Below, piece by piece: positions 4,603-19,538 of a stretch of 64,000 bases of DNA. The notes under the pieces are model-generated. The model was not told where the DNA came from. It made no database searches and saw nothing but the letters and a program-made list of their open reading frames with translations. Every line of letters begins with the position of its first letter. Within the stretch, counting starts at the first letter, position 1. The DNA is taken from NCBI GenBank assembly GCA_963745035.1, contig CAVUVW010000015.1, positions 224,001 through 288,000 of the forward strand, given 5' to 3'. The translations under genes and the position numbers were made by a program. Origin of the DNA: an uncultured delta proteobacterium. GTDB lineage: Bacteria; Desulfobacterota; Binatia; UBA9968.

Positions 4603-5596
4603 CTATCCGGTGAACACTTTGAGCTTTTTGAAATCGTCGATGACCTGGAAATCCTGCTTCATTTTGTCGATGGATTCCCCGATCTGAACGATTTTCTCTC
4701 GCGCCAGATTTCCCAGAAACTCTCCGGCGGTGGCCAGATAATCGATTTTGTGCGGCTCGAGGGTCATCAACCTCGCCGCGGTGGCATCCACGGCGACCAG
4801 GTCGTCGCCGAAGACCAGCACGCCGCTGGCCTTGGCTTGTCCCTGAAGCGGCCCATTGCCCTCCATGCCGACGATGCCGTCGACGATGGCGAACTGCGGC
4901 AGCGGCAGCGAGCTGTTGATGTCGAGAATACTGTTGCCGATGCCCTGCCAGTGAAGAATGTTTTTCGGCCAGCCGTAGACCACGCCGGGCACGACGCCGA
5001 ACATATTCTTGAGCGACAAGGTGGCACCGACCCAGTGATGGGTCTTGAGCTTCGGCAGCGAGACCAGCAGATCGGCATTGTACAACGTCTCGGGCAAATA
5101 CAAGTGCTTCAGGTCGGTAAAGCTGCTGCGCAGCGGCGTGACGCGCACGTCGTCGGAGTTGAGATCGACGTAGCGCACCCGATGGTCTTTCACGACCTCG
5201 TACAATCCCGACGCCGAGAGCAGATATTCGTTATCGCGGCGGTGTCCAGGGCCTTCGCCGACCACTACCTGCGCCGCGCCCAGGCTGCGCAACGAATCGA
5301 TGGCCGCTTCGATCACCGCCGGGTGAGTATTGATCACGCCCTTGGGATCGAATTCGACCAAATTGGGTTTGAGCAGGATTCTTTTTCCCTTGACGTTCAC
5401 GCCGCAAAGCTTGATGCCCCGGACGATGATATCTTTGAGCGGCTCGTCATAACGGCTTGCCGGCAAAATCGCCACTCGCGAATTGTCCTTGCGCCGAAAT
5501 GCGTCGCGCTGCCAGCGCGACCGGCTGCCCGCAGCCCGCGCTCGCCCCGGCGAGCGCGCCCAAAGCCGAGTATTTCAGAAATTCACGGCGCAGCAT
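4603..5596 (-). CDS. DUF362 domain protein with Tat-like/lipoprotein signal (+1 frameshift near 5520)
   Basis: LLKPNLV, THPAV, LPKLKTH, TLSLKNMFG, DGIVGMEGNGP and DLVAVDA motifs. The N-terminus MLRREFLKYSALGALAGASAGC lies in an adjacent frame. Confidence 0.85.
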
Positions 5597-5598
5597 GC

Positions 5599-6501
5599 TT
5601 ACACCCGAAACGGATTGGACTTGCCGGCCAGCGCGATCAGCCCGAGCGCAAGGGTTTTCGTTTCGCCGAGAAAGCCGGTTTCACGAAAGCTGTTTTCTAC
5701 GCGCTTTTGCCAATCGCCGATCGCCTGGCCGTAAAGGCCGAGGCAAATCGCGGTCCAGGAGCAAGCCAAGCCCGAATTGGTTTCCTTAGCGATTTTCTTA
5801 AGCGTCTCCAAACTCTGTCGATTGGCCGTCTCGCCGGCGCGATCTTGCAGGGCGATCAACGCCACGGCGGTAATGTCGGGATAGGGCCAGAGCGCATAGT
5901 CCAGGACTTTCGAATTGCCGTAATTCCAGCCGCCGCCGTTGCACATGCGGTCGTAGATCAGCGCCTCGCCTTCTTGGATTCTCTGGTGTGCATTGTTCTC
6001 CGCGAGCGAGGCCTTTACTTTTTTGAGCGCGAGGATCGCATAACTCGTCGGCTCGACCCAGCTAAATGAATTCGGCACCCAGGACCAGCCGACGAGATCG
6101 TTGTTCAACCGATTGATGTTGCTCTTGCCGGTTGCCCACAGGATCAGTTTCGCCAGAATGCCGGGCTTGCTGCCCTCTTGCGCCACAAGCCAGCGCGCCG
6201 CGCGCGACACGCGCTCTCCGTGCTCGGGAAAAGCGCTGAGCGCGATGATCGCCAAAGCGGTCGTCCAGGAGCCCGCGGTAGCGACATCGTTCAGGCGCCA
6301 ACCGCCGTCGGGATTTTGCCGCTCGGCCAACCAGAGCGCGGCCCGGAGAACCCGATCGCTGGCCGCACTTTCACCCACGGCGTGGAGCGCGCTCAGCGCC
6401 AGCGAAGTCGCCTCGGTATTGCTGCGCCGCCCCTCGGCGGCGCCCCAACCGCCGTCGCGATTCTGCAGGCCGATGAGGGTGTTTCGAACTTGGTCAATCA
6501 T
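5599..6501 (-). CDS. Prenyltransferase/squalene oxidase repeat (alpha-alpha toroid) protein
   Basis: QW-like repeats LQNRDGGWG, RQNPDGGW and GGGWNYGN. Confidence 0.8.
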   Translation of the reverse strand: MIDQVRNTLIGLQNRDGGWGAAEGRRSNTEATSLALSALHAVGESAASDRVLRAALWLAERQNPDGGWRLNDVATAGSWTTALAIIALSAFPEHGERVSRAARWLVAQEGSKPGILAKLILWATGKSNINRLNNDLVGWSWVPNSFSWVEPTSYAILALKKVKASLAENNAHQRIQEGEALIYDRMCNGGGWNYGNSKVLDYALWPYPDITAVALIALQDRAGETANRQSLETLKKIAKETNSGLACSWTAICLGLYGQAIGDWQKRVENSFRETGFLGETKTLALGLIALAGKSNPFRV

Positions 6502-6673: not shown

Positions 6674-7420
6674 CTATAGAAAATGCAACCGGGCTTCGGC
6701 GCTTTGCAGTTTTCGCTCCGCTTCGCGAATGCGCGCGGGTGTGCCGAGATCCTGCCAGAAGCCGTCGAATGGAAAACCGTAAAGGCGCTCGCCGCCGGCG
6801 AGCATGCGCGGGTAGGTGTCTCTCGTGGTGCTGAACTTCCGCCCGGCGGCATGTTCGCGCATGTGATCGAAGATTCGCGGCTCGAGAATCTGCACGCCGC
6901 TAAACATCAGCTTACGTACCTCGCCGGCTGGCTCGACCGGCGCCTTGCTGTCGAGAAAGCGAATGATTCGGCCGCTTGTGTCGATGTCCATGGAGCCGAA
7001 TTCATCGGCGCGTGGATCGGCGCGCAGCACCAGGGTCGCAACCGCGCCCGTCTGCGCGTGGAAGTCGATCAGCGCCGCCAAATTCAAGTCGATCAGCGCG
7101 TCGGTGTTGATGACGATGAAGCTGCCGTCACGCAGGAAGGCTTTGGCCTTGAGCAGGCCGCCGCCGGTGTCGAGCAACTCGGGCTCTTTCGAGTAGCGGA
7201 TGCTCAAGCCGAGCCCCTGGCCGTCGCCCAGGCGACTTTCGATCTGTTCGCCGAAATGGTGCAGATTGATGACGATGTCGCGGATACCGTGGTGGCGCAG
7301 CAACAAAAGCGCGTATTCGATCATCGGCCGGCCGGCGACCGGCACCAGCGCTTTCGGCATGCGATCGGTCACCGGGCGGAGGCGCGTGCCCTGGCCTGCC
7401 GCCAGCACCATGGCTTTCAC
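6674..7420 (-). CDS. Nucleotidyltransferase, MurU-like (N-acetylmuramate-1-phosphate uridylyltransferase family)
   Basis: AMVLAAGQGTRLRPVT..PKALV, LLDTGGGL and WQDLGTP motifs; 4-nt overlap with the upstream AmgK-like kinase. Confidence 0.85.
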   Translation of the reverse strand: MKAMVLAAGQGTRLRPVTDRMPKALVPVAGRPMIEYALLLLRHHGIRDIVINLHHFGEQIESRLGDGQGLGLSIRYSKEPELLDTGGGLLKAKAFLRDGSFIVINTDALIDLNLAALIDFHAQTGAVATLVLRADPRADEFGSMDIDTSGRIIRFLDSKAPVEPAGEVRKLMFSGVQILEPRIFDHMREHAAGRKFSTTRDTYPRMLAGGERLYGFPFDGFWQDLGTPARIREAERKLQSAEARLHFL

Positions 7421-8493
7421 TGCATCGCCTCGAAATGCTCGCCGAGAAGCGGCAGGAGCTTGCGGGTTTGCGGCGTTTTGTCGAAGTTGCGCAGCAGCCG
7501 CCGCGCGGTGGGCGCGATAAACTTCCGGTAGCCGGGCTTGCCCTTTACCAGATCGAGATAGTAAAAGCGCCCGATGACTTTCAAATCCCGTTGGATCGCC
7601 GACAACCGGTAGATTTCGAAAAATTCTTCGATGCCGCTCCCCCGACCGCCCGCCGAGCCGCTGCCGTCGATATAATAGTGGACCAAGCGCTCTTCCAGCT
7701 CCGGGCGAATCACGCTGTCGGTCACGCGGTCGTTCAAGAGCGAGGCGAGATCGTACTGCGGCGGGGCGAGCAGCGCGTCTTGAAAGTCGATCACCCGCAC
7801 CGCGTTCTCGTGGATCATCAGATTCCAGCTATGGTAATCGCGATGGCTCAAGCAGGCGGGTTGGCGCTCCAAGATGCCGGCGATTGCGGCAAACTCGCCG
7901 CGCAGCGTTCGGATCGTTGCCGTCTTGACTCGGGCGCCGGGACGCTTTTCCAGGCCCCACTCGATAAAATGGTCGAGCTCCCAGAGATAGAGCTTCGAGT
8001 CGAAACGCTGCTGAAAAGCGATGCACGAGTCGTCGCGATTTTGCACGCCGCGGGTGTGGACGACCAGCAGCTCATCGATGGCCTTTCGGTACCACGCCAG
8101 GACTTCGTCGTCGGTCCGCCCCTGCACTCGGTCCCACAGCGCGGTGTCGCCCAGGTCTTCGAGCAAAAGAATCCCATCCTTTTCCCAATGGCCGTAGATT
8201 GCCGGCACTTTAACGCCGATCTTGTCGAGAAAGCGGTGAACGTTCACGAACGGCAGCTCGCGCGGCCCTTCCTTGAAGATCGCCAGTTCTTCGCTGGAGA
8301 GCGGCAAGCCGCTGTCGCCCGGGAGCTCCATCACGATCACCGACGCCGGCGCAGCCGGCCCGCACAGCCAAGCCCGGTAGTAGCGCCGGCTCGAAGCGTC
8401 GCCCGTCAACGAAGCGAGGGATTCCACTTCGGCGCCGGCGCCGAATACCGCGTGGACTTTGTCGCCAAGGAGCTGCTTGAACGGTTCGGTCAA
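7417..8493 (-). CDS. APH-like phosphotransferase, AmgK-like anomeric MurNAc/GlcNAc kinase
   Basis: GDASSRRYYR, LLEDLGD, HRDYHSWNLM, IDFQDA, YDLASLL and QRDLKVIG motifs. Confidence 0.85.
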   Translation of the reverse strand: MTEPFKQLLGDKVHAVFGAGAEVESLASLTGDASSRRYYRAWLCGPAAPASVIVMELPGDSGLPLSSEELAIFKEGPRELPFVNVHRFLDKIGVKVPAIYGHWEKDGILLLEDLGDTALWDRVQGRTDDEVLAWYRKAIDELLVVHTRGVQNRDDSCIAFQQRFDSKLYLWELDHFIEWGLEKRPGARVKTATIRTLRGEFAAIAGILERQPACLSHRDYHSWNLMIHENAVRVIDFQDALLAPPQYDLASLLNDRVTDSVIRPELEERLVHYYIDGSGSAGGRGSGIEEFFEIYRLSAIQRDLKVIGRFYYLDLVKGKPGYRKFIAPTARRLLRNFDKTPQTRKLLPLLGEHFEAMQ

Positions 8494-8545
8494 CTTGGGT
8501 TCTTGTCCTGTTCCGGCGTGACTAGCTTGGGAGGATGATTTCTTT

Positions 8546-8561
8546 GCCGGCGACCGCCGGC
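8546..8561 (-). promoter_or_regulatory. SECIS-like hairpin for the C-terminal UGA (8574-8576)
   Basis: The minus strand reads GCCGGC-GGUC-GCCGGC, starting 12 nt after the UGA, with a G/GU-containing apical loop about 18-20 nt from it. Confidence 0.65.
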
Positions 8562-8564
8562 GCG

Positions 8565-8789
8565 CTACACTTCTCAGGAGCCGCCGAAGCCGACGGTCAC
8601 TTTGCCGTCCTCGATGATCACCGGCACCTGGCGCCGGCCATTGGCATGCTTCAGCATTTCCGCCAGCGCATCATCGTCTTCGAGCACGTTGCGGTATTCG
8701 AAGCGAATCTTCCGTCGCGTGAAAGCCTCCCGGGCCGCGGCGGTATACGGTCAAAGGTCTTTGCCAAAAATTACGACGGCGTCGCTCAT
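8565..8789 (-). CDS. Glutaredoxin-like double selenoprotein (UXX-star type), 74 aa with Sec at codons 13 and 72
   Basis: Reads MSDAVVIFGKDL-U-PYTAAAREAFTRRKIRFEYRNVLEDDDALAEMLKHANGRRQVPVIIEDGKVTVGFGGS-U-EV-stop(TAG). It has a UPYT active site and the glutaredoxin-like QVPVI and GFGG motifs, with a hairpin after each TGA. Confidence 0.88.
8712..8750 (-). promoter_or_regulatory. SECIS-like hairpin for the first UGA (8751-8753)
   Basis: Minus strand CCGU...CGC...GGCC-CGGGA-GGCU...GCG-ACGG directly after the UGA; the G-rich loop begins 18 nt downstream. Confidence 0.55.
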
Positions 8790-8920
8790 TTCATTTTGCA
8801 TTGCGGCAGGCAAACGTTGCTCGTCAAAAATAGGCGCGCGGCGATTAAATTGCAAGTGAACCGAGCCCTATGTTAAGTTCGTATAATTTCCTTCCTTCGC
8901 TTGGAAGACGGAGTCAATCT

Positions 8921-9850
8921 GTGTCGATCCGCATCGCCCTTGCCCAGATCAATCCCCGGCTTGGCAACCTCGCGGCCAACCTGGCGCTCTATGAAGAGGC
9001 GGTTCGCCGGGGCGTCGGCGAGCGCGCCGATCTGCTGGTTTTTCCCGAGCTCAGTCTCACCGGCTATTTGCTGCGCGACACAGTGCCGAGCGTCGCGCTG
9101 AGCGCCAAGTCCACGGAGATGAAAACCCTCGGACAGCTCAGCCGCGAGCTGCCGTTCGTCGCGGGCTTGGTCGAGGAGAGCGCGGATCATCGGTTTTTCA
9201 ATTCGGCGATCTATTTCGAAGACGGCGAAATTCGCCACGTGCATCGCAAAGTCTATCTGCCGACCTACGGCATGTTCGACGAGCAGCGCTATTTCGCGCG
9301 CGGCGACCGGGTGCGCGCCTTCGAGTCCAAGTTCGGCCGCTTAACCTTGTTGATCTGCGAGGACCTGTGGCATCCCTCGACCATCTACTTGGCGGCGCTC
9401 GACGGCGCGTTGGCGGTGCTGTGTCCTTCGGCGAGCCCGCTTCGCGGCATCGTCGAGGGACAAGCTCAAGACGACAACGCGCGCTACTGGGAAATGCTCA
9501 ATCGAACCTACGCCGAGACCTACAGCCTGTTCATGATCTACGGCAACCGCTGCGGCTTCGAGGACGGCGTCGGCTTTTGGGGTGGCTCCGAGGTCATCGA
9601 TCCCTTCGGCCAGCGACTCGCCAAAGCGAAATATTACGAGGAAGATTTTCTCGTCGCCGAAATCTCGCTCGAGTCCGTTCGGCGCAAACGCACCATGTCG
9701 CCGCTGCTGCGCGACGAGGATATCGATCTTACGATCAACGAGCTGATGCGCATCCGCGAGCGGCCCGCGGCCCTGAAAATCGTCCAGGGATTTAAAGGCG
9801 GCAAGGTGCGCGTGCTAAAGAAACCCAAGATCAAGCCGCGCCGGCCCTAA
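8921..9850 (+). CDS. Nitrilase-family C-N hydrolase; probable stand-alone glutaminase subunit of NAD synthetase
   Basis: E-K-C triad ([34 protein letters not shown]); lies 10 nt upstream of nadE. Confidence 0.88.
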
Positions 9851-9860
9851 GCCGGGGATC

Positions 9861-10682
9861 ATGATTGCCATTCCCACCAATCCGGCTCTGCTGCGCGCGA
9901 TTCTCGGCGGCTTTATCCACAACGAAGTGCACAAGACCGGCTTGGCGCGGGTCGTCGTCGGACTGTCGGGCGGCGTGGATTCCGCGCTGAGCGCCCTACT
10001 CGCCGCCGAAGCGCTCGGCGCGGGCAATGTGCTGGCGGTTTTGATGCCCTACAAAAGCTCCCATTCGGACAGCCGCGCGCACGCCGAAATGATCGTGCAA
10101 AAAAGCGGCATCGAGTCGATCTTCGTCGACATCACGCCGCAGATCGACGCTTACTTCGAGCGCTTCCCCGACGCCGACGCGCGCCGGCGCGGCAACAAGA
10201 TGGCGCGCGAGCGCATGACCATCCTCTACGACCATTCGGCGCGCTGGAACGGCCTGGTGCTCGGCACCAGCAACAAGACCGAGCTCTTGCTCGGCTACGG
10301 CACCTTGCACGGCGACATGGCCTCAGCGATCAATCCGCTCGGTGATCTTTATAAAACTCAGGTCTGGGCCTTGGCCGAAGCGCTGGAGATTCCCGATGTG
10401 ATCGTGCGCAAAGAACCCTCGGCGGATCTCTGGGTCGGGCAGACCGACGAAGGAGAATTGGGTTTCAGCTATCGCGAAGTCGATCAACTACTGTATTTAA
10501 TGGTCGATCAACGCTACACCAGACCGGAGCTCATCGCCGCCGGTTTTGCCGAGCGCTTCGTCGATGACGTCGCCCAGCGCATCATGTTTTCGCAATTCAA
10601 GCGCCGCCTGCCGGTGATCGCCAAAGTCTCGCAGCGCACCATTGATCGCGATTTTCGCTATTCGCGGGATTGGGGGAAATAG
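9861..10682 (+). CDS. nadE: NAD+ synthetase
   Basis: [41 protein letters not shown] and PSADLW motifs. Confidence 0.95.
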
Positions 10683-10688
10683 GAGGGA

Positions 10689-10766
10689 AGTGAGGAGTGA
10701 AGAGTGAGGCGTGAGACGATAGACTGTCTTATGCAATGCTCACTACTCACTGCCTCACTCCTCACT
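10689..10766. repeat. Inverted tandem heptamer array, (AGTGAGG)x4 ... (CCTCACT)x4
   Basis: AGTGAGG AGTGAAG AGTGAGG CGTGAGA, a spacer, then GCTCACT ACTCACT GCCTCACT CCTCACT. Confidence 0.85.
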
Positions 10767-10780
10767 TGTGGGGGTCGGTG

Positions 10781-11624
10781 ATGGCCGGTGTCCTTTACGT
10801 CGTCGCCACGCCCATCGGCAATCTCGAAGACATCAGCCTGCGCGCGCTCCGCGTCCTCAAGGAAGTTGATCTGATCGCCGCCGAAGACACCCGCCATACG
10901 CGCATTCTTCTCGACCACTACAATATCGGCACGCCGCTCGTGAGCTACCACCAGCACAACGAGAAGGCTCAGGCGCCGCGCTTGGTCGAGCGGCTGCGAG
11001 CACGGCGAGAACATGGCGCTGGTCTCGGACGCCGGCACGCCGGCGATCTCGGACCCCGGGTATCGGCTGGTGGTCGAGGCGCTCCGCGCCGGGATTCGGG
11101 TGACGCCGATTCCCGGAGCTTCGGCGCTGGCGTCAGCCTTGAGCGCCGGCGGTTTACCGACGGATCGTTTTGTCTTTGAGGGGTTCTTGCCGTCCAAAAA
11201 AGGCGAGCGCGAAAGCCGGCTGGAGGCGCTGCGCGGCGAAAACCGGACGGTGGTTTTCTACGAGGCGCCGCATCGTTTGAAGGACTCCCTCGCCGCCCTG
11301 CGACGCGTTCTCGGCAACCGCGACATCGTCATCGGCCGCGAGTTGAGCAAGGTTCACGAGGAATTCCTGCGCGGCACGATCGACGAGATCCTTGCCGGGC
11401 TCGCCGAACGAGAGCTGAAAGGCGAGCTCACGATCGTGGTGCGCGGCGCGCAAGATACGGAACAAATTTCCCAGGACGAATTGGCGGCGGAAATTCGCCG
11501 ACTGATCGGCGCAGGCGTCGGCGTGAAGCAGATTTCCGAAATCTTGGGCGAGCGCTACCGCCTGGCCAAGCGCGACGTGTATCGATTGGCCTTGCGGCTC
11601 AAGGATGCGCCGGCAAAGTCATGA
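10781..11624 (+). CDS. rsmI: 16S rRNA C1402 2'-O-methyltransferase (+1 frameshift near 10995)
   Basis: [15 protein letters not shown] and AAEDTRHT in one frame; [28 protein letters not shown] and RELSKVHEE in the next. Confidence 0.93.
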
Positions 11625-17683: not shown

Positions 17684-19538
17684 ATGTTACCTATGCGAAT
17701 GATATCCGCTTTTACACGGCTCTTACTGCTGGCGGCGCTGGCCGGCTGTTCCTCGCTGTCGCTGTGGTCATCCGGCGCCAAATCCGACCCGACTGCGGAA
17801 GCTCTTTTCGACGAAGGGAACCGCAACTTCAACGACAAGCGCTACGTTCGCGCCATCGACAACTACACCAAGATTCGCACCGATCACCCGTTCAGCCCGC
17901 TGATGACGCAGGTGGAGCTGAAGCTCGCCGACTCCTACTATCGCAACCAGCAATACCCGGAAGCGATCAACGCCTTCAAAGAATTTCAGTCCATGCACCC
18001 GACGAATGAGCATATTCCATTCGTGACCTTGCGCCTCGGGCAGGCGCACTTTGACCAGTTTACCAGCACCGACCGCGACCAAAAAAACACCGAAATCGCC
18101 AAGGGCTACTTTGAAACCGTCGTGAGCAAGTATCCGCAATCCCCCGAAGCGGCGGAAGCCAGAGCAAAGCTCGCCAAGTGTCTGGAGTACCTGGCCGAGC
18201 ACGAATTCAACGTGGCGCACTTCTATTTTCAGCAGGAAAAATTTCCCGCAGCGCGAGACCGCTTCGAGGAGATCGTGCGCAAGTACAAGGACACGCCGAC
18301 GGCGGTCAAAAGTCTTTTTTACCTCGGCGAGAGTTATCGAAGAGAAAAAAATTCAGCTGCGCGCCGCTCTCGCCTACGAAGCCGTGATGCAACATTATCC
18401 GCAGAGCAAATTCGCCGCGGACGCCAAGGTCCAGTTGGCCCAGCTTGAAAAGGAAAAACACGATCCGCTGGCATTGTTGCTCATGCGCGACCGCCGCCCA
18501 TCCGCTGCGCCGGAGGTCCAGCCGGACCCGTCATTGGCCAAGCTGCGCGACCTGAACCTGGTGGCGAAAACCGAGGTCGTGCATGAGAATCCCGGCGACG
18601 AAAAAGGCTTCCTGCGTCGCGTGGCGGACAAGCTGAATCCGTTCTCTTCTTCGGACAACGGCAAAAAAGAGGAACCCAAACCGGAGAGCGCCATCGACTT
18701 GCTGGCGAAGCGCAACGCGGCGCAGAAAAAGGAAGAGTCCAGCAAGAAAGACGACATGGCCGTCGCCGAAAAGGAAGCCAAAGCCAGCGGCTTTGTCGGT
18801 CAGATCGATGAATCGCTCAAACAAAAGGGTATCGACTCGGGAGCGCGCCAACAGGCGCTAAAGCCGCCGCCCGCCGATCTGCCGAAGACCGATGATTTGG
18901 CGGTCAAAGCGCCGCCGGCCACCGACACAACCGCCCTGTTGAGCTCCATCGACGGCAAGCTCAAGCAGAGCGGCAAGGATGGCACCGAGCTTCCGCCTGC
19001 CCCCGAAGCCGCTCAGGCGTTCAAAGACGTCGCCGCTACCCAGGCGGCGATCGCCAAGCAGACTCAAAGTCAAGTTTCTCAGGATGTTCAAAGCAGCGGC
19101 ATTTTGAGCAGTATCGACCAGAAGCTCAAAGCCAGTGGCGTCGAGCCCGGGAAGTTTGAGGCCCCGCCGACCGCAGAAGAAATCAAGACTGCGGCGACGA
19201 AGAAACCACAAGCGAGAAATGTCGAGCTCGAACCGAAAGTCACCCTCGAAAAAGGTCCGCTTTTCTTGAGCCCGAGCAGTCTTTCTGGGGAGACGCCCGC
19301 GCCAAGCGCAAATCCCGTCAAGCCCCAGAGCCAGGAGACTGTAGAAGAGACAGCGCCGCCCTCGCGGGTCCTGGTGAAGGGACCGATTCAGCCGCCTGAA
19401 CGCGCGAGCGCCGCCGCGCAAGCCGCGGAGACCAGAAAGTCGTCATCCACTCGCGAAGACGAGCCGAAAGGCGCCCTCGATCAAATTCGTCAAGACGTGG
19501 AAAACGTCGGCAAAGCTCTCAACCCGTTGCGCTGGTAA
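17684..19538 (+). CDS. bamD: Outer membrane protein assembly factor BamD with a long C-terminal extension (+1 frameshift near 18352)
   Basis: Lipobox LAGC and TPRs (TDRDQ, LAEHEFNVAHFY, AARDRF). Removing one base after REKN continues QLRAALAYEAVMQHYPQSKFA into ORF 18384-19538. Confidence 0.85.

Follow-up and report, generated by a model that had tools for sequence, protein, structure and literature searches.

A gene on the minus strand of the window, by which we mean the whole 64,000-nucleotide stretch of DNA that was analysed, encodes a small glutaredoxin-like protein in a reading frame that passes through two TGA codons (Table 1). We are almost certain both of the gene and of the reading of its two UGA codons as selenocysteine (Sec, U), by way of the host SelB and a SECIS element after each codon. 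This unannotated double-Sec gene is real; its family, however, has been catalogued before.

The frame has 74 codons and exactly two in-frame TGA codons, as the original prediction had it, and it is indeed missing from the open reading frame list made for the window with translation table 11. Its end reads TGA GAA GTG TAG, which is a U-X-X-stop ending. The first TGA had been described as lying in a CPYC-like redox site. It does occupy the nucleophile position, but the motif U-P-Y-T has one Sec and lacks a second Cys, unlike the dithiol CPYC. Genome-wide, 75 ATG frames of 60–90 codons contain exactly two TGA, the second of them three codons before a TAA or TAG, and among those 75 this gene gives the only match to the family profile. 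Judged from sequence, it is the family score and the conservation, not the bare pattern of a frame with two TGA, that raise the finding above chance. The gene call amounts to an annotation fix, since many database entries of the family end early at a TGA.

Table 1. Features of the selenoprotein gene and its surroundings, in window positions
Feature	Position	Strand	Remarks
UXX-star family 1 glutaredoxin-like selenoprotein gene	8565..8789	-	74 aa, ATG (8789) to TAG (8565)
TGA codon 13	8751..8753	-	Sec at the glutaredoxin nucleophile position, FGKDL-U-PYT
TGA codon 72	8574..8576	-	Sec in the C-terminal U-X-X-stop motif, GFGGS-U-EV-stop
SECIS candidate 1	8712..8743	-	inside the CDS; apical stem 8735-8725, loop CGGGA, -12.5 kcal/mol
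SECIS candidate 2	8546..8561	-	3' UTR; 6-bp stem GCCGGC/GCCGGC, loop GGUC, spacing 18 nt, -13.2 kcal/mol
AmgK-like APH-family kinase	7417..8493	-	TTG start at 8493, 71 nt downstream of the selenoprotein gene
MurU-like nucleotidyltransferase	6674..7420	-	overlaps the kinase stop
Split NAD synthase, divergent	8870..10682	+	nitrilase-like domain gene 8870-9850, nadE 9861-10682

With Cys written for Sec, the protein scores 112.3 bits against NCBIfam NF041114 (UXX-star family 1; cut-off 72), over model positions 1–70 of 70, and 93.8 bits against NF041212 (cut-off 66). Both scores bear out the UXX-star membership given in the original prediction, and a glutaredoxin-like fold of the expected 70–75 aa is supported by a match to Pfam PF00462 (E = 6.7e-14), by the structure model and by the fold searches described below. 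The two marks of family 1, a UxxT motif and two Sec residues, are both found here (U-P-Y-T and U72). With family 1, NF041114 within NF041212, the protein shares the full-model score, the UxxT, the two Sec and the U-X-X-stop ending, and we see no family-level difference; traits of this lineage are the U-E-V tail, U-G-V being the commonest tail in the phylum sample, and the AmgK-like neighbour. UXX-star families 2 and 3 and the HUGP/GUXX-star fusion have a related glutaredoxin-like domain with a C-terminal Sec motif; NF041211, NF047338 and NF045501 all score below their cut-offs here (50.9 against 100, 54.6 against 97 and 56.6 against 325). Identity as a classical Grx3 or as an NrdH-redoxin was rejected, the motif being UxxT rather than CxxC and the scores falling short (39.7 against a cut-off of 90 for TIGR02181, 33.1 against 85.75 for TIGR02194). 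Fourteen longer homologue matches were scanned and proved to be multi-glutaredoxin, GST, TGR, MsrA or PDZ proteins, or mis-read extensions, with no clue among the 14 to a family-specific fusion partner.

A 2026 review (PMC13188914) lists the family in its Table 1 as 'Distant Grx-like protein 1', with motif UxxT and two Sec. There family 1 is counted among predicted, not experimentally verified, selenoproteins, and the role of Sec in UXX-star proteins is said still to need work. The review attributes the family to its reference 61, apparently the 2008 GOS paper, in the main text of which the term 'distant Grx' was not found, and cites Haft and Tolstoy 2025 for the related UXX-star families.

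The genome is equipped for Sec insertion, and the four components that the original prediction named as a check (selA, selB, selD and tRNA-Sec) are all present. The three genes score over cut-off and are neighbours on contig C17, at 315–320 kb, where selD itself has an in-frame TGA; tRNA-SeC(tca) lies at C17:371273. The tRNA-Trp is normal, with anticodon CCA. selA was also found in 55 of 60 relatives and in 41 of the 43 carriers of the family elsewhere in the phylum.

Both TGA codons are conserved. Strong matches to the gene (E < 1e-15) occur in 51 of 60 related genomes, with two TGA in 40 and one in 11. The 30 best loci, counting the window's own, have TGA (24) or Cys (6) at codon 13 and TGA without exception (30 of 30) at codon 72. 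A set of 57 loci from a genome collection largely repeats the same genes; codon 72 is again TGA throughout (57/57), and codon 13 divides into 34 TGA and 23 Cys, a Cys share that can be inflated because one of the two search patterns had Cys at that site. By title, 28 of these 57 are Candidatus Binatia and most others delta proteobacterium or similar. Farther out, the family cut-off was passed in 43 of 200 other genomes of the phylum, and in the 29 loci considered from these 43 the first site is TGA (24) or Cys (5) and the second TGA (28) or absent (1). The database homologue P0002, also over the family cut-off, has Cys at both sites. Homologues carry Cys or TGA at the two sites, the check that the original prediction had named, apart from the one phylum locus without the second; relatives are not independent, and these counts describe conservation rather than a statistical test. 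The two residues after codon 72 are conserved as well, and then comes a real stop. That stop is itself TGA in 13 of 28 genes (phylum loci L041–L070), where one downstream hairpin serves to distinguish the Sec UGA from a stop UGA just three codons later.

Hairpins had been predicted about 18–20 nt after each TGA. Both are present, with the apical loop starting 18 nt after the UGA in each case, but neither beats shuffled sequences on energy: equally or more stable folds came from 193 of 200 shuffles for candidate 1 and from 31 of 200 for candidate 2. The SECIS consensus given in the legend to Fig. 2 of the review (PMC13188914) has a loop of 3–9 nt with G in its first two positions, a spacing of 16–37 nt, a stem of 4–16 bp and an MFE of -7.5 or lower. 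Candidate 2 fits this consensus in loop, spacing, stem and energy. Candidate 1 fits in loop, G, spacing and energy; its apical stem has just 3 bp before a 5-nt bulge.

Candidate 2 lies in the 3' UTR, so only a constraint on the RNA could preserve it. Its five inner pairs are each kept in 27–29 rows of the 30-row alignment, and one pair alternates between G-C, A-U and G-U. The covariation score of 0.197 was reached by none of 500 shuffles and exceeds those of six slid controls (highest 0.109), though the structure was derived from these very sequences, and scores of this kind are inflated among relatives. By the two measures based on numbers of pairs or of pair types, this hairpin was not unusual (74 and 101 of 500 shuffles).

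For candidate 1, inside the coding sequence, an RNAalifold consensus retained only two pairs, with no compensatory change. The synonymous sites point the other way. The third base of the Ala19 codon, part of an apical stem pair, is C in 24 of 24 Sec forms, against a genome-wide GCC share of 37%, and it is the sole invariant one of 27 fourfold-degenerate sites in those forms. Arg20 is never CGC in the same 24, though CGC is the commonest CGN codon. The 57-locus set has C at the Ala19 third base in all 34 Sec forms, as opposed to 17 of 23 Cys forms. At the phylum loci every Sec form (24 of 24) has a pyrimidine there, and so do three of five Cys forms. Candidate 1 is weak by energy, and this apparent synonymous-site constraint supports it.

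An AlphaFold2 model made from the 30-row alignment with Cys for Sec has a minimal glutaredoxin fold, at a mean pLDDT of 94.3. The best solved match, both by sequence (E = 2e-5) and by Foldseek (TM 0.78, rmsd 1.1), is cGrx1 of Clostridium (Alkaliphilus) oremlandii (PDB 7c10/7c12). A fold search gave Z of 10.1–10.3 over residues 2–70 for 3zij, 1h75 and 7c10. Alignments to solved structures stop near residue 70 and leave the C-terminal tail uncovered. The model lacks a C-terminal helix; it has short strands at residues 54–55, just before Pro56, and at 72–73, with pLDDT of about 95. When residues 72–74 were deleted from all 30 rows, the 54–55 strand was lost, mean pLDDT fell from 94.3 to 88.2, and residues 61–70 dropped from 94 to 76. 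The simplest reading of the paired full-length and tail-less models would be that the tail pairs with the cis-proline loop. This pairing and the distance between residues 13 and 72 derive from secondary-structure assignments in Cys-for-Sec models of a shallow 30-row alignment, and AlphaFold may simply put any Cys-bearing tail into that groove.

Such docking has a setting in what is described for related folds. According to PMC2665069, thioredoxin-fold proteins hold their partners through antiparallel beta pairing with the cis-Pro loop, and in most cases the side chain of cisPro-1 lies no more than 4 Å from the nucleophilic Cys; the TVP motif of glutaredoxins is given as part of the glutathione site (PMC3530482). 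In our alignment Sec13 matches the catalytic Cys of cGrx1, and the resolving-Cys position of UPXC is Thr in 30 of 30 rows. Given a Thr at the resolving position and a tail on the cis-Pro loop, we infer that Sec72 is the resolving residue.

The account that best explains these observations, and which as a whole we hold to be fairly probable, is one of tail docking, Sec72 as the resolving partner of Sec13, and a general redox role. The protein would be a stand-alone glutaredoxin-fold selenoprotein with Sec13 at the usual nucleophile position, lacking a resolving Cys and ending after strand 4, where a Gly-rich linker and U-E-V replace the usual C-terminal helix. Its tail would fold back on the cis-proline loop Gln54-Val55-Pro56, the groove for glutathione or partner peptides, placing Sec72 next to Sec13, where the Cys of glutathione would sit. 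An intramolecular Se-Se bond between Sec13 and Sec72 (Se-S in the Cys13 forms) would arise during turnover. The whole would work as a small dithiol-type oxidoreductase with a built-in glutathione-like resolving partner, re-reduced by a cellular reductant, and as a general redox protein it would have no dedicated tie to AmgK/MurU. Docking, the 13–72 bond and the redox role are all steps that we infer; the diselenide pairing of the two Sec, suggested in the original prediction, gains indirect support from the paired AlphaFold models.

cGrx1 is described as a native selenoprotein whose catalytic Sec lies in a U/C-P-X-C motif and is resolved by the second Cys of UPXC (PMC7642778). It has one Sec and a resolving Cys, whereas in the present protein Thr takes the place of that Cys and the C-terminal tail bears a second Sec. 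NrdH-redoxin (1h75) and the BC3987-type glutaredoxin-like protein (3zij) have the same minimal fold (Z 10.2–10.3, rmsd 1.5–2.1 Å over 65–68 residues), but both are CxxC dithiols without Sec. Selenoprotein L-type UxxU proteins with a diselenide bond were reportedly described by Shchedrina et al. in 2007. They offer a natural Se-Se precedent with both Sec in one UxxU, whereas here the two are 59 residues apart.

Extended to the family, the account would make UXX-star family 1 a group of glutaredoxins that carry their own glutathione mimic, a docked Gly-Gly-Ser-Sec-X-X tail forming a long-range diselenide, and that act independently of glutathione. We would give this extension even chances. gshB was over cut-off in none of the 43 other family-carrying genomes, with two sub-threshold matches, which means that the family as a rule cannot depend on glutathione made by GshB, the one route covered by this 43-genome test. 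Two observations count against the mechanism. The present genome has a gshB (398.7 bits against 299) and a GCS2-family ligase of its own, besides a thioredoxin reductase, and so needs no glutathione substitute; and L064, a phylum member, carries CxxC and lacks the tail Sec. We did not find a tail acting as glutathione mimic in the literature searched. The hypothesis is concrete and cheap to test.

In a different function, the two Sec would act on a metal or metalloid such as arsenic or mercury, by binding or transforming it, and the protein would be a detoxification chaperone or reductase instead of exchanging disulfides. A pair of neighbouring selenols would be well suited to hold As(III) or Hg(II), and tail docking is equally compatible with such a role. 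The review also allows that Sec in the UXX-star family may serve as a metal-binding ligand (PMC13188914). Among the 29 phylum loci, two lie in arsenic-type clusters: L070 (C-P-Y-T ... U-D-I) between an ArsE-like protein, an Fe-S protein and an ACR3 that scores over cut-off, and L064 alongside ArsR and a partial ACR3. But both members are atypical, with Cys at site 13 and, in L064, no tail Sec, and at the other 27 loci no transporter of this kind turned up when 118 of the 132 ORFs picked within about 1.5 kb on each side were scanned (Pfam E ≤ 1e-9). Nor does the window gene or its genus relatives have such neighbours among those tested. We consider metal handling unlikely, a tentative alternative to the redox reading.

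A single Sec might instead do the chemistry, with a mobile Sec72 as an exposed nucleophile acting on peroxides or disulfides and position 13 serving only to re-reduce it. Animal thioredoxin reductases provide the precedent of an exposed Sec nucleophile on a C-terminal arm. Sec72 is never replaced in the 57 loci, as against Cys at site 13 in 23 of them, a share that the Cys-containing search pattern possibly inflated, and the SECIS of Sec72 is the better conserved of the two. Position 13, however, is the canonical nucleophile of the glutaredoxin fold. Sec72 as nucleophile also requires the same 13–72 contact as our best explanation, and sequence cannot separate the two. We think it improbable that Sec72 acts in this way, although its stronger conservation leaves some room for an attacking tail, and prefer Sec13 as the probable nucleophile with Sec72 as its resolving partner.

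The surroundings of the gene suggested another role. As predicted, it ends 71 nt upstream of an AmgK-like kinase on the same strand, followed by a MurU-like gene. These amgK-murU-like neighbours are so named by likeness only, since both score below the NCBIfam equivalog cut-offs (100.5 against 550 for the AmgK-like, 179.9 against 250 for the MurU-like protein); the likeness claimed for them stands, with that reservation. In 27 of 28 genomes of the same genus the kinase follows within 70–309 nt, and in the remaining one after 1.3 kb. In other genera of the family it is adjacent in one of three cases, 1.6 kb away in one and not found in one; in a second family (f2) it is adjacent in one of two genomes and 3.9 kb away in the other. 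In a third (f3), the link is absent from all 17 genomes with both genes, six of which have the kinase on another contig. Across the phylum, no kinase, transferase or NAD synthase lies within about 1.5 kb at any of the 29 loci.

It had been proposed that the gene has a functional tie to peptidoglycan recycling, the protein being a dedicated redox partner or regulator of the AmgK/MurU-like enzymes. The shared strand, the short gap and the adjacency in the genus, in one other genus of the family and in one genome of the second family all speak for it, as does a 151-nt contig from an RNA library that spans 8458–8607, from the gene end through the kinase start. One contig over two genes shows no single transcript, however, and an RNA library can contain DNA. 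Family f3 keeps the kinase (54–59% identical) but not the link, insertions of 1.3–3.9 kb part the two genes in G008, G035 and G045, and the link is lost phylum-wide. Synteny, the proposed check, is kept in the genus but lost in family f3 and at the phylum loci, and a dedicated role in recycling is highly improbable. The divergent NAD synthase and rsmI are conserved alongside the gene block; together with the loss of the amgK link outside the lineage, this points to inherited gene order and not a shared job. It looks like an old gene order in part of one order, with no family-wide partnership, as far as gene positions tell, and a tempting false lead is removed.

Co-transcription with the kinase in this lineage is plausible because of the 71-nt gap. 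A promoter and terminator scan of 8400–9000 gave no promoter-like site and one terminator-like site, which is chance level. Contigs from RNA libraries cover the gene in part (word shares 0.28 and 0.14) and cannot show expression, strand or a single transcript; RNA run X1 had no cover of the gene. Neighbours at the phylum loci were varied. Their sole recurrent set, which we do not take as functional, was ndk with protoglobin/PsiE in four of 29 loci (L044, L045, L048 and L049), where the gene is followed by a nucleoside diphosphate kinase and a protoglobin-PsiE fusion. In the window, the murU-like gene is followed (4603–6501, minus strand) by a prenyltransferase/squalene-cyclase-repeat protein, which comes after murU in several relatives too, and a DUF362 protein.

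A reading of the TGAs as genuine stops, as sequencing errors or as Trp codons, in a pseudogene or giving a truncated product, has next to no chance. The assembly does show apparent frameshifts elsewhere (rsmI in two frames, the paralogue L008), and many database forms are truncated at these TGAs or translated with Trp; but the same TGAs recur in dozens of genomes across the phylum, homologues without TGA carry Cys and not Trp, tRNA-Trp is CCA, and a short-read contig from another study runs gapless over 7400–8966 with none of the 12 listed differences (of 13) in either TGA. We regard the error and pseudogene readings as already refuted. Recoding of TGA as Trp was rejected on the tRNA-Trp anticodon and the Cys homologues. 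Several database homologues, P0005, P0012, P0014, P0016 and P0020 among them, have Trp in place of both Sec residues, apparently because the gene caller translated TGA as Trp, and many others end at residue 71.

Frame breaks were seen in two further genes of the window, both on the plus strand: rsmI is split over two frames (10736–11624), and a bamD-like gene (17684–19538) runs on in an overlapping second frame. Both are probably indel errors of the assembly. A U-L-F-C glutaredoxin-like paralogue elsewhere in the genome (L008:1500–1720, plus strand; G000:C20:4539–4703) has a frame that is apparently shifted twice near the cis-Pro motif, which appears to be an assembly error or a pseudogene. 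Two more glutaredoxin-like genes with in-frame TGA were noted. One (L009:1474–1704, minus strand; G000:C13 near 1183.8–1184.0 kb) is a second Sec glutaredoxin-like gene of 77 aa with a U-G-P-C motif, YruB/NrdH-like and below all NCBIfam cut-offs. The other (L010; G000:C17:300331–300498, minus strand) is a glutaredoxin-like domain within a longer frame, with its TGA in U-S-S-C, and lies about 15 kb from the selA-selB-selD cluster.
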